Shown: piece by piece, positions 1-336 of the stretch
Layout of the letters: the number at the start of each line of letters is the position of its first letter
How positions within the stretch are numbered: position 1 is the stretch's first letter
Source: Escherichia coli
GTDB taxonomy: Bacteria > Pseudomonadota > Gammaproteobacteria > Enterobacterales > Enterobacteriaceae
Assembly (NCBI RefSeq): GCF_003334255.1
Contig: NZ_QOWU01000197.1
Length of the DNA stretch: 702 nucleotides
Reading direction: 5' to 3' (one strand)
Position numbers and translations under genes: made by a program
The notes under the pieces: generated by a model
Seen by the model: the letters and a program-made list of their open reading frames with translations, nothing else
What the model was told of the DNA's origin: nothing
Database searches by the model: none

Positions 1-336
1 GGCAAATATGAGCCAGCGGGGATTGTCCACCGCGGGGAGTTTGTCTTCACGAAGGAGGCAACCAGCCGGATTGGTGTCGGGAACCTGTACCGCCTGATGC
101 GGGGCTATGCGGAAGGGGGGTATGTGGGTGCTGCCGGAAGTCCGGCGCAGATGCGGCGGGCGGAAGGTATTAATTTTAATCAGAACAATCACGTGGTGAT
201 TCAGAACGACGGTATCAACGGACAGGCCGGGCCGCAGCTGATGAAAGCGGTGTATGAGATGGCCCGTAAAGGTGCGCAGGATGAGCTCCGGCTGCAGTTG
301 CGTGATGGCGGTCTGTTATCGGGGAGCGGGCGATGA
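1..336 (+). CDS. H: Tail tape measure protein, C-terminal fragment (lambda gpH-like); 5' end lies upstream of the window
   Basis: Frame 1 is open with no stop from base 1 to TGA at 334-336. It translates as GKYEPAGIVHRGEFVFTKEATSRIGVGNLYRLMRGYAEGG...NNHVVIQNDGINGQAGPQLMKAVYEMARKGAQDELRLQLRDGGLLSGSGR*. The ORF track shows only 97-336 because it starts at the first ATG, which is internal. From memory this closely resembles the C-terminus of lambda gpH, and it sits immediately upstream of an M-like gene as in lambda. No search was run. Confidence 0.85.
   Translation, partial: GKYEPAGIVHRGEFVFTKEATSRIGVGNLYRLMRGYAEGGYVGAAGSPAQMRRAEGINFNQNNHVVIQNDGINGQAGPQLMKAVYEMARKGAQDELRLQLRDGGLLSGSGR

Follow-up and report, generated by a model that had tools for sequence, protein, structure and literature searches.

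The 3′ end of a lambda-type tape-measure gene as the far end of gpHC and as the probable initiation region of gene M

The locus and its relatives

The stretch of DNA analysed here, called the window in what follows, is 702 bases long and contains three co-directional reading frames on the plus strand. It comprises the 3′ end of H, the complete M and the 5′ end of L of a lambda-type tail operon in a lambdoid prophage or phage (Table 1). The best phage match is Escherichia phage PhiR12_2_star (PV340551.1), which is 99.3% identical to the window at the DNA level, and identities of up to 99.6% are found in chromosomal prophages of E. coli, the best being the SCU-106 prophage, and none of the loci retrieved holds the window letter for letter; matches to the window are present in 3654 of the 5426 complete genomes. 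Many Stx-converting and other lambdoid phages are 94-97% identical to the window DNA. The relation to lambda is mosaic: nucleotide identity is about 75% overall, 92% over bases 1-100 and 60-79% in each of the segments that follow. The neighbours annotated in PhiR12_2_star are U, V, G, T, H, M, L, K, I and J; from the tail-cluster order G/T-H-M-L-K-I-J the window holds H-M-L, and the order is complete in both PhiR12_2_star and lambda. A literature search on the PhiR12 phages found nothing relevant. Among the matches, 21 records named "Campylobacter phage" (e.g., MW057783.1; CJLB-4, 48,361 bp) align at the coordinates and with the identity of lambda itself, and they are probably lambda or lambda-derived sequences, not phages of Campylobacter.

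Table 1. Coordinates of the features recognised in the 702-base window.
Feature	Position	Strand	Basis and remarks
Tape-measure gene, 3′ end (lambda H homologue)	1..336	+	Last 111 aa and stop, equivalent to lambda gpH 743-853; homology, PHROG, partial TIGR01541, annotated H
C-terminal helix, coiled coil on the gpI tripod (by equivalence to lambda)	226..300	+	Equivalent to lambda gpH 818-842; alignment, PMC10721106, PMC12617516, low-confidence AlphaFold2 helix
R-D-G-G-L-L-S, ordered non-helical extension (by equivalence to lambda)	301..321	+	Equivalent to lambda 843-849; in the cryo-EM models; G103 and G104 at least 90% conserved
Shine-Dalgarno-like GGGGAG for M	321..326	+	Core GGGAG at 322-326; 6 nt before the ATG; -7.7 kcal/mol
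G-S-G-R	322..333	+	Equivalent to lambda 850-853; the only unmodelled residues; variable; its codons hold the core of the putative M SD, the 6-nt spacer and the A of the ATG
ATGA, M start (333-335) over H stop (334-336)	333..336	+	Same in lambda and Gifsy-2; GTGA in phi80
Gene M, distal tail / minor tail protein, 109 aa	333..662	+	PHROG 14, PHROG 21806; annotated M
M-L junction	649..664	+	AGGTGG at 649-654; M TGA (660-662) over L ATG (662-664), giving TGATG
Gene L start, 13 codons and 2 bases of the 14th	662..702	+	Coding sequence leaves the window; annotation of relatives

The first of the three frames is open from base 1 to the TGA at 334-336 and has 111 codons. The identification of this frame as the C-terminus of a tape-measure protein ending in RDGGLLSGSGR, made in the first-pass annotation, is confirmed by the translation, by the alignment to gpH and by the matches to PHROG 24 and PHROG 4346. 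The segment aligns without gaps to lambda gpH 743-853 (E 2e-49, 76% identity; sequences of PDB 8IYK, 8IYL and 8K35), such that window residue i is lambda residue i+742 and residue 1 is G743, and it also aligns to the 32-residue gpH chain of PDB 9E7M. Both PHROG families are tape-measure families (E 1e-74 for 4346; E 8e-43 for 24). The model TIGR01541 (tape_meas_lam_C) scores 74.1 bits against a cutoff of 104.75 because the H segment is incomplete in the window, where only model positions 263-332 of 332 are represented. Pfam-A gave no match on the 111-residue segment; in homologues, PF09718 lies upstream.

The last 13 codons (295-333) read Q-L-R-D-G-G-L-L-S-G-S-G-R, and the frame ends in QLRDGGLLSGSGR. 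The last 11 residues include four glycines and two serines, to be compared with 17% Gly and 21% Gly plus Ser in the 111-residue H segment used as background; the binomial probabilities, uncorrected, are 0.10 for Gly alone and 0.014 for Gly and Ser together. The description of the final residues as rich in Gly and Ser is confirmed to this extent: the enrichment is real but modest.

By far the best conserved part of the H segment is the block GKYEPAGIVHRGEFVFTKEATSRIGVGNLYRLMR (window 1-100, H residues 1-34, lambda 743-776). Its first 33 codons have zero amino-acid changes relative to lambda, and tblastn recovers the block at identities of 61-94% from most of 979 phage records, while the remaining C-terminus diverges. 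These records include phi80 and phages of Klebsiella, Enterobacter, Cronobacter, Serratia, Stenotrophomonas and Mannheimia. The change near base 100 would be the mark of either a mosaic boundary or strong constraint. The block directly follows the Gly-rich region in which the cut of gpH is presumed to lie.

A further peculiarity of this region concerns the G-run AAGGGGGGTAT (window 109-115; 4112-4120 in the PhiR12_2_star locus), which lacks one G in PhiR12_2_star. In that phage H is split into two coding sequences, namely an N-terminal one of 811 residues and a C-terminal one of 61 residues that begins at the Met corresponding to window position 151; PhiR5_1 likewise has two H features. Possible reasons for the missing G are an error in sequencing, a real frameshift that slippage rescues, and a tape measure that is naturally split near the maturation region.

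The H-M junction and its conservation

The frame that follows H encodes a product matching PHROG 14 (E 2e-39) and PHROG 21806 (E 6e-47; minor tail protein). No NCBIfam model matched the product, and PF05939 (Phage_min_tail) is found on the genes that come right after homologous tape-measure genes. Two statements of the first-pass annotation are upheld at this point: that the next gene is M, by PHROG 14/21806 and the annotation of relatives, and that the tape-measure tail overlaps the ribosome-binding site and start codon of M, by GGGGAG at 321-326 and ATGA at 333-336. In cryo-EM, the copy number per tail is six for gpM and three to six for gpH (PMC12617516, PMC10721106).

Pairing of the SD-like motif to the 3′ end of 16S rRNA was calculated at -7.7 kcal/mol, about the 6th percentile of the 15-nt windows in the same G-rich gene. 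The putative ribosome-binding site of M is recognised by its position and its conservation, the strength of the motif being unremarkable by itself. The predicted fold of 270-390 was no better than that of shuffled sequences (z = +0.58), with no SD-sequestering structure beyond chance; an Rfam search returned no family, and the inverted repeats are trivial. No internal promoter for M was found in a promoter scan, and the sole hit of a terminator scan (minus strand, 32-14) is no more than chance would give. Since the region is without a promoter-like site, an Rfam family or a non-random RNA fold, the late polycistronic mRNA is taken to be the template for M. The anatomy is that expected of a translationally coupled pair, with the SD placed within H, a spacer of 6 nt (5-9 nt being expected) and an ATGA overlap, and H and M would be coupled in this manner.

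The M-L junction repeats the design of the H-M junction, with AGGTGG placed 7 nt ahead of the L ATG; in PhiR12_2_star, M and L are found at 4332-4661 and 4661-5359, respectively. On the minus strand, an ATG-initiated reading frame of 83 residues (316-567) runs antisense to M. It is rich in Pro, Ser and Ala, as expected opposite GC-rich coding sequence, and the plus-strand frames over it are accounted for by strong homology.

The conservation of the junction was assessed in 80 IMG/VR loci retrieved with the H peptide and 80 loci retrieved with a distant homologue, in further junctions from a DNA pattern scan with fixed flanks in which 321-332 was left entirely free, and in lambda, Gifsy-2, phi80 and three metagenomic homologues. 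The lambda-like set, anchored upstream of the junction, consists of 58 unique haplotypes. In all of them bases 322, 323, 326 and 332-337 are invariant, and positions 324/325 are only G,A (giving GGGAG) or A,G (giving GGAGG), such that a GGAG core is present in every lambda-like haplotype; as these haplotypes form essentially two lineages, GGGAG and GGAGG, the covariation of 324 and 325 counts as about one evolutionary event. The ATGA overlap is invariant across the lambda-like loci. The third codon positions of H at 321, 324, 327 and 330 vary in the 58 haplotypes and that at 333, which is the A of the M ATG, never does. The possibility that synonymous change is suppressed over the entire tail was considered and rejected: 81% of the H third positions in 226-333 vary among haplotypes, and only position 333 is frozen, by the overlap.

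At the protein level, the motif R-[D/P]-G-G-[LIVM]-[LFIW] stands out in an alignment of 20-23 sequences of homologues (42-89% identical), in which the two glycines and the hydrophobic pair that follows them are at least 90% conserved. The terminal tetrapeptide of the relatives is GSGR, GSGG, GSRR, GGRR, GGGR or GGER, which means radical change at three of its four positions; Gly108 is invariant in the lambda-like haplotypes. In distant homologues (42-53% identity) the tails are unrelated, e.g., …GGLIWNATRGR, …GGIIWNANKQR, …GGVLYSRRTQ and …GGLLYSRG. A purine-rich SD (AGAGG, GGAGG, AGG or GAGGAGG) is nevertheless found in the last codons of their tape-measure genes, with or without overlap, and the AGG of the terminal Arg is often part of it. 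In a minority of junction types the SD is reduced to a weak AGG of about -3.9 kcal/mol, which is not above the local background.

In one distant clade (L083, L085, L086 and L089-L168; tape-measure proteins ending in PGG(L/I)IWNA...R), 3-9 nt separate the tape-measure stop from the M ATG, and the M SD is made of the terminal Arg codon and the stop, e.g., cAGAGGTAA or cGGAGGTAA. Several database "proteins" of the distant family are short fragments or chimeras (P0054 with Lom-like domains; P0058, named head-tail joining), and these are probably frameshifted or degraded prophage genes.

In our reading, the constraint on 301-321 acts on the protein, as an ordered contact region, and that on 322-336 acts mainly on the signals for initiation and termination. 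The proposal that the whole overlapping stretch is under a double constraint is retained in part: the SD core and ATGA never vary and RDGG is conserved as protein, but the last three residues vary radically. The Gly, Ser and Arg of the last four residues are explained most simply as a by-product of a purine-rich SD, which is spelled by GGN, AGY, AGG and CGA codons at a place where the protein sequence is of little importance.

It could also be argued that G-S-G-R has a protein function of its own, as a tether or contact in the gpI/gpJ lumen or as a trigger of release, and that M is started by SD-independent reinitiation at ATGA. A C-terminal Arg is indeed frequent in clades that encode it differently (CGA in the lambda-like, AGG/AGA in the distant one), the invariance of Gly108 would suit such a function, and the SD is of moderate strength. 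This explanation is nonetheless unlikely. Nature has swapped S/G, G/R/E and R/G at the last three positions, with a terminal Gly in an abundant haplotype, and the distant homologues do not share the tail at all; an SD-like purine run precedes M in most junction types, including those without overlap, where reinitiation at overlapping codons is impossible. A role of these codons mainly as an initiation signal for M is the reading preferred here.

The end of gpH in the virion and the place of its cleavage

The structure of this C-terminus is known from mature lambda virions. Residues 818-842 of gpH form a three-helix coiled coil on the gpI tripod, in the lumen of the tail tip, within a model that covers 818-849 (PMC10721106). 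A second study resolved 818-849, of 853 residues, on trimeric gpI and assigned them to gpHC (PMC12617516), and the contact of the C-terminal coiled coil with gpI has been described as well (PMC11101478). In virions, three of the six copies of gpHC are visible (PMC12617516). The mass spectrometry in the supplement of PMC10721106 gives coverage at the protein level only. It is important to note that these structural and processing data belong to lambda itself, 76% identical over the H segment, and not to the phage of the window. The equivalent helix of 25 residues contains 10 substitutions relative to lambda. An AlphaFold2 monomer of the 111 residues has a mean pLDDT of 48, too low for any inference on the fold; it places a helix at 78-101 and gives a pLDDT below 50 to residues 106-111.

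These models bear on two of the earlier claims. The implication that the mature protein is without this C-terminus is contradicted by the two cryo-EM studies, in which three modelled copies keep the chain up to four residues from its end; on that evidence, removal of the tail would be essentially excluded for the three modelled gpI-bound gpHC copies. The description of the tail as flexible may apply at most to the last four residues, GSGR, but not to RDGGL(L/F)S, which is ordered in the lambda models. The absence of lambda 850-853 from these models may reflect disorder or trimming, with which it is equally compatible.

The cut that converts gpH into gpH* has been placed in a large glycine-rich region at about 690-730 of the lambda protein, its exact site being unmapped (PMC12617516). 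The product gpH*, of about 78 kDa, corresponds roughly to residues 1-710 and keeps the original N-terminus, and the cut sets free gpHC, a C-terminal fragment of about 14 kDa that is kept in the virion (PMC12617516). The highest Gly density of lambda gpH is found at residues ~697-742 (VGIVGSIGSAIGGAVGGGASASGGTAIQ...TGGFTGTGG), ending right before window base 1, and in 100%-identical loci an identical Gly-rich stretch stands ahead of the window sequence. Because residue 1 of the window is lambda G743, the H part of the window belongs wholly to gpHC and comes after the probable cut. The stretch 295-336 is at least about 110 residues downstream of that cut, and the processing site is outside the window. 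The first-pass annotation was right that the conversion of gpH into gpH* affects the C-terminal part of the protein, as it does in lambda, but not in connecting it with the noted stretch, the cut being near 690-730 (PMC12617516). As a correction, the cleavage does not concern 295-336 and falls in the Gly-rich region just upstream of the window.

The idea that gpH is matured to gpH* at a site formed wholly or partly by its Gly/Ser-rich extreme C-terminus, which would then be missing from the virion protein, is highly improbable on these data. It is true that gpH is processed in its C-terminal part and that the last four residues appear in neither cryo-EM model. The shift of about 14 kDa, however, puts the cut near 690-730, and the loss of 4-11 residues cannot bring 92 kDa down to 78 kDa; moreover, two independent structures of mature virions contain gpH 818-849, and the Gly-rich region named in the literature is upstream of the window.

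Enzymes of the JAB type typically cut after a C-terminal Gly-Gly, and R-D-G-G followed by a short variable tail resembles the precursors of ubiquitin-like proteins. The K homologue of PhiR12_2_star (5370-6113, three genes downstream) has a Prok-JAB domain (E 7e-16) and an NlpC/P60 domain (E 5e-13). A reading in which R-[D/P]-G-G and its short variable tail are recognised or cut in a ubiquitin-like way by the JAB and NlpC/P60 tail assembly protein K draws on this presence of both domains in the best-hit phage, on the conservation of GG at 90% or more but not of the residues past GG+3, and on a gpH protease that is still nameless, with three gpHC copies unaccounted for (PMC12617516). If it were true, cleavage by K at GG might explain the three unseen gpHC copies and give a first handle on the maturation protease of gpH. 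It is scarcely credible, since the three visible chains run on to S849, three residues beyond G845-G846, the conservation of two or three hydrophobic residues after GG fits a structural contact and not a disposable propeptide, the likeness of LRLQLRDGG to a ubiquitin tail does not extend to lambda (IQTQMRDGG) or to the distant clade (IAKAVRPGG), and the mass shift demands a cut far upstream.

The junction among known systems

Taken together, 295-336 is very probably what its position indicates, that is, the last 13 codons of H and the stop, which serve as the far end of gpHC in the protein and as the initiation region of M in the mRNA. According to this proposal, a cut about 110-160 residues ahead of 295-336 would separate gpHC from the rest of the tape measure, and gpHC would then stay in the tail tip. 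Q-L would close the helix of the trimeric coiled coil, R-D-G-G-L-L-S would continue the chain in ordered form and rest on the gpI plug, and the final G-S-G-R would make a short end that tolerates sequence change and is probably disordered. The last four H codons would carry the GGGAG core of the SD (322-326), the 6-nt spacer and an ATG that shares bases with the H stop. M could be started either by ribosomes that end H and re-start at ATGA or by fresh 30S subunits that bind the SD, and its synthesis would be tied to that of H either way, on a late polycistronic mRNA. The sequence features, the homology and the conservation pattern are direct results of the analysis, and the structure and the cleavage region come from the literature; for this phage, the function of the SD, the coupling of M to H and the disorder of the last four residues are inferred.

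The closest known counterpart is the H-M junction of lambda itself (J02459 13064-13103, gpH 841-853, M start at 13100). Both share the gene order, the gapless segment of 111 residues, an M of 109 residues, the ATGA, an SD in the same four codons, the RDGG motif and the terminal Arg. Unlike lambda, in which the tail is LFSGGGR and the SD is GGAGG, the window has LLSGSGR and GGGGAG, with the GGAG core shifted by 1 nt. The H segment of the window is the homologue of most of the lambda gpHC seen in PDB 8IYK, 8IYL, 8K35 and 9E7M, including the helix and RDGGL(F/L)S. A similar destiny is known for pb2 of phage T5, which is cut during tail morphogenesis like lambda gpH and whose C-terminal fragment stays in the tail tip, the last ~35 residues of pb2C forming a three-stranded superhelix on the hub plug (PMC10038345). 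In T5, the cut has been mapped after R1127, and pb2C has a metallopeptidase motif and muralytic activity (PMC10038345). Lambda gpHC, in contrast, is released at an unmapped site and has no known enzymatic activity (PMC12617516), and the likeness to T5 is a functional one.

With regard to the mRNA, coupling through overlapping stop and start codons is found in bacterial and phage operons, and the ATGA with an SD in the upstream reading frame is of the same kind here, with nothing unusual about it. The H-M junction of 295-336 is of an ordinary, known kind: the overlap of H and M could be read from the lambda genome as soon as that was sequenced, and cryo-EM has shown where in the tail tip the C-terminus of gpH lies. 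What the comparison adds is that the unmodelled, freely variable residues are exactly those whose codons contain the putative ribosome-binding site of M, as would be expected if a ribosome-binding site shapes the composition of a dispensable C-terminal end.
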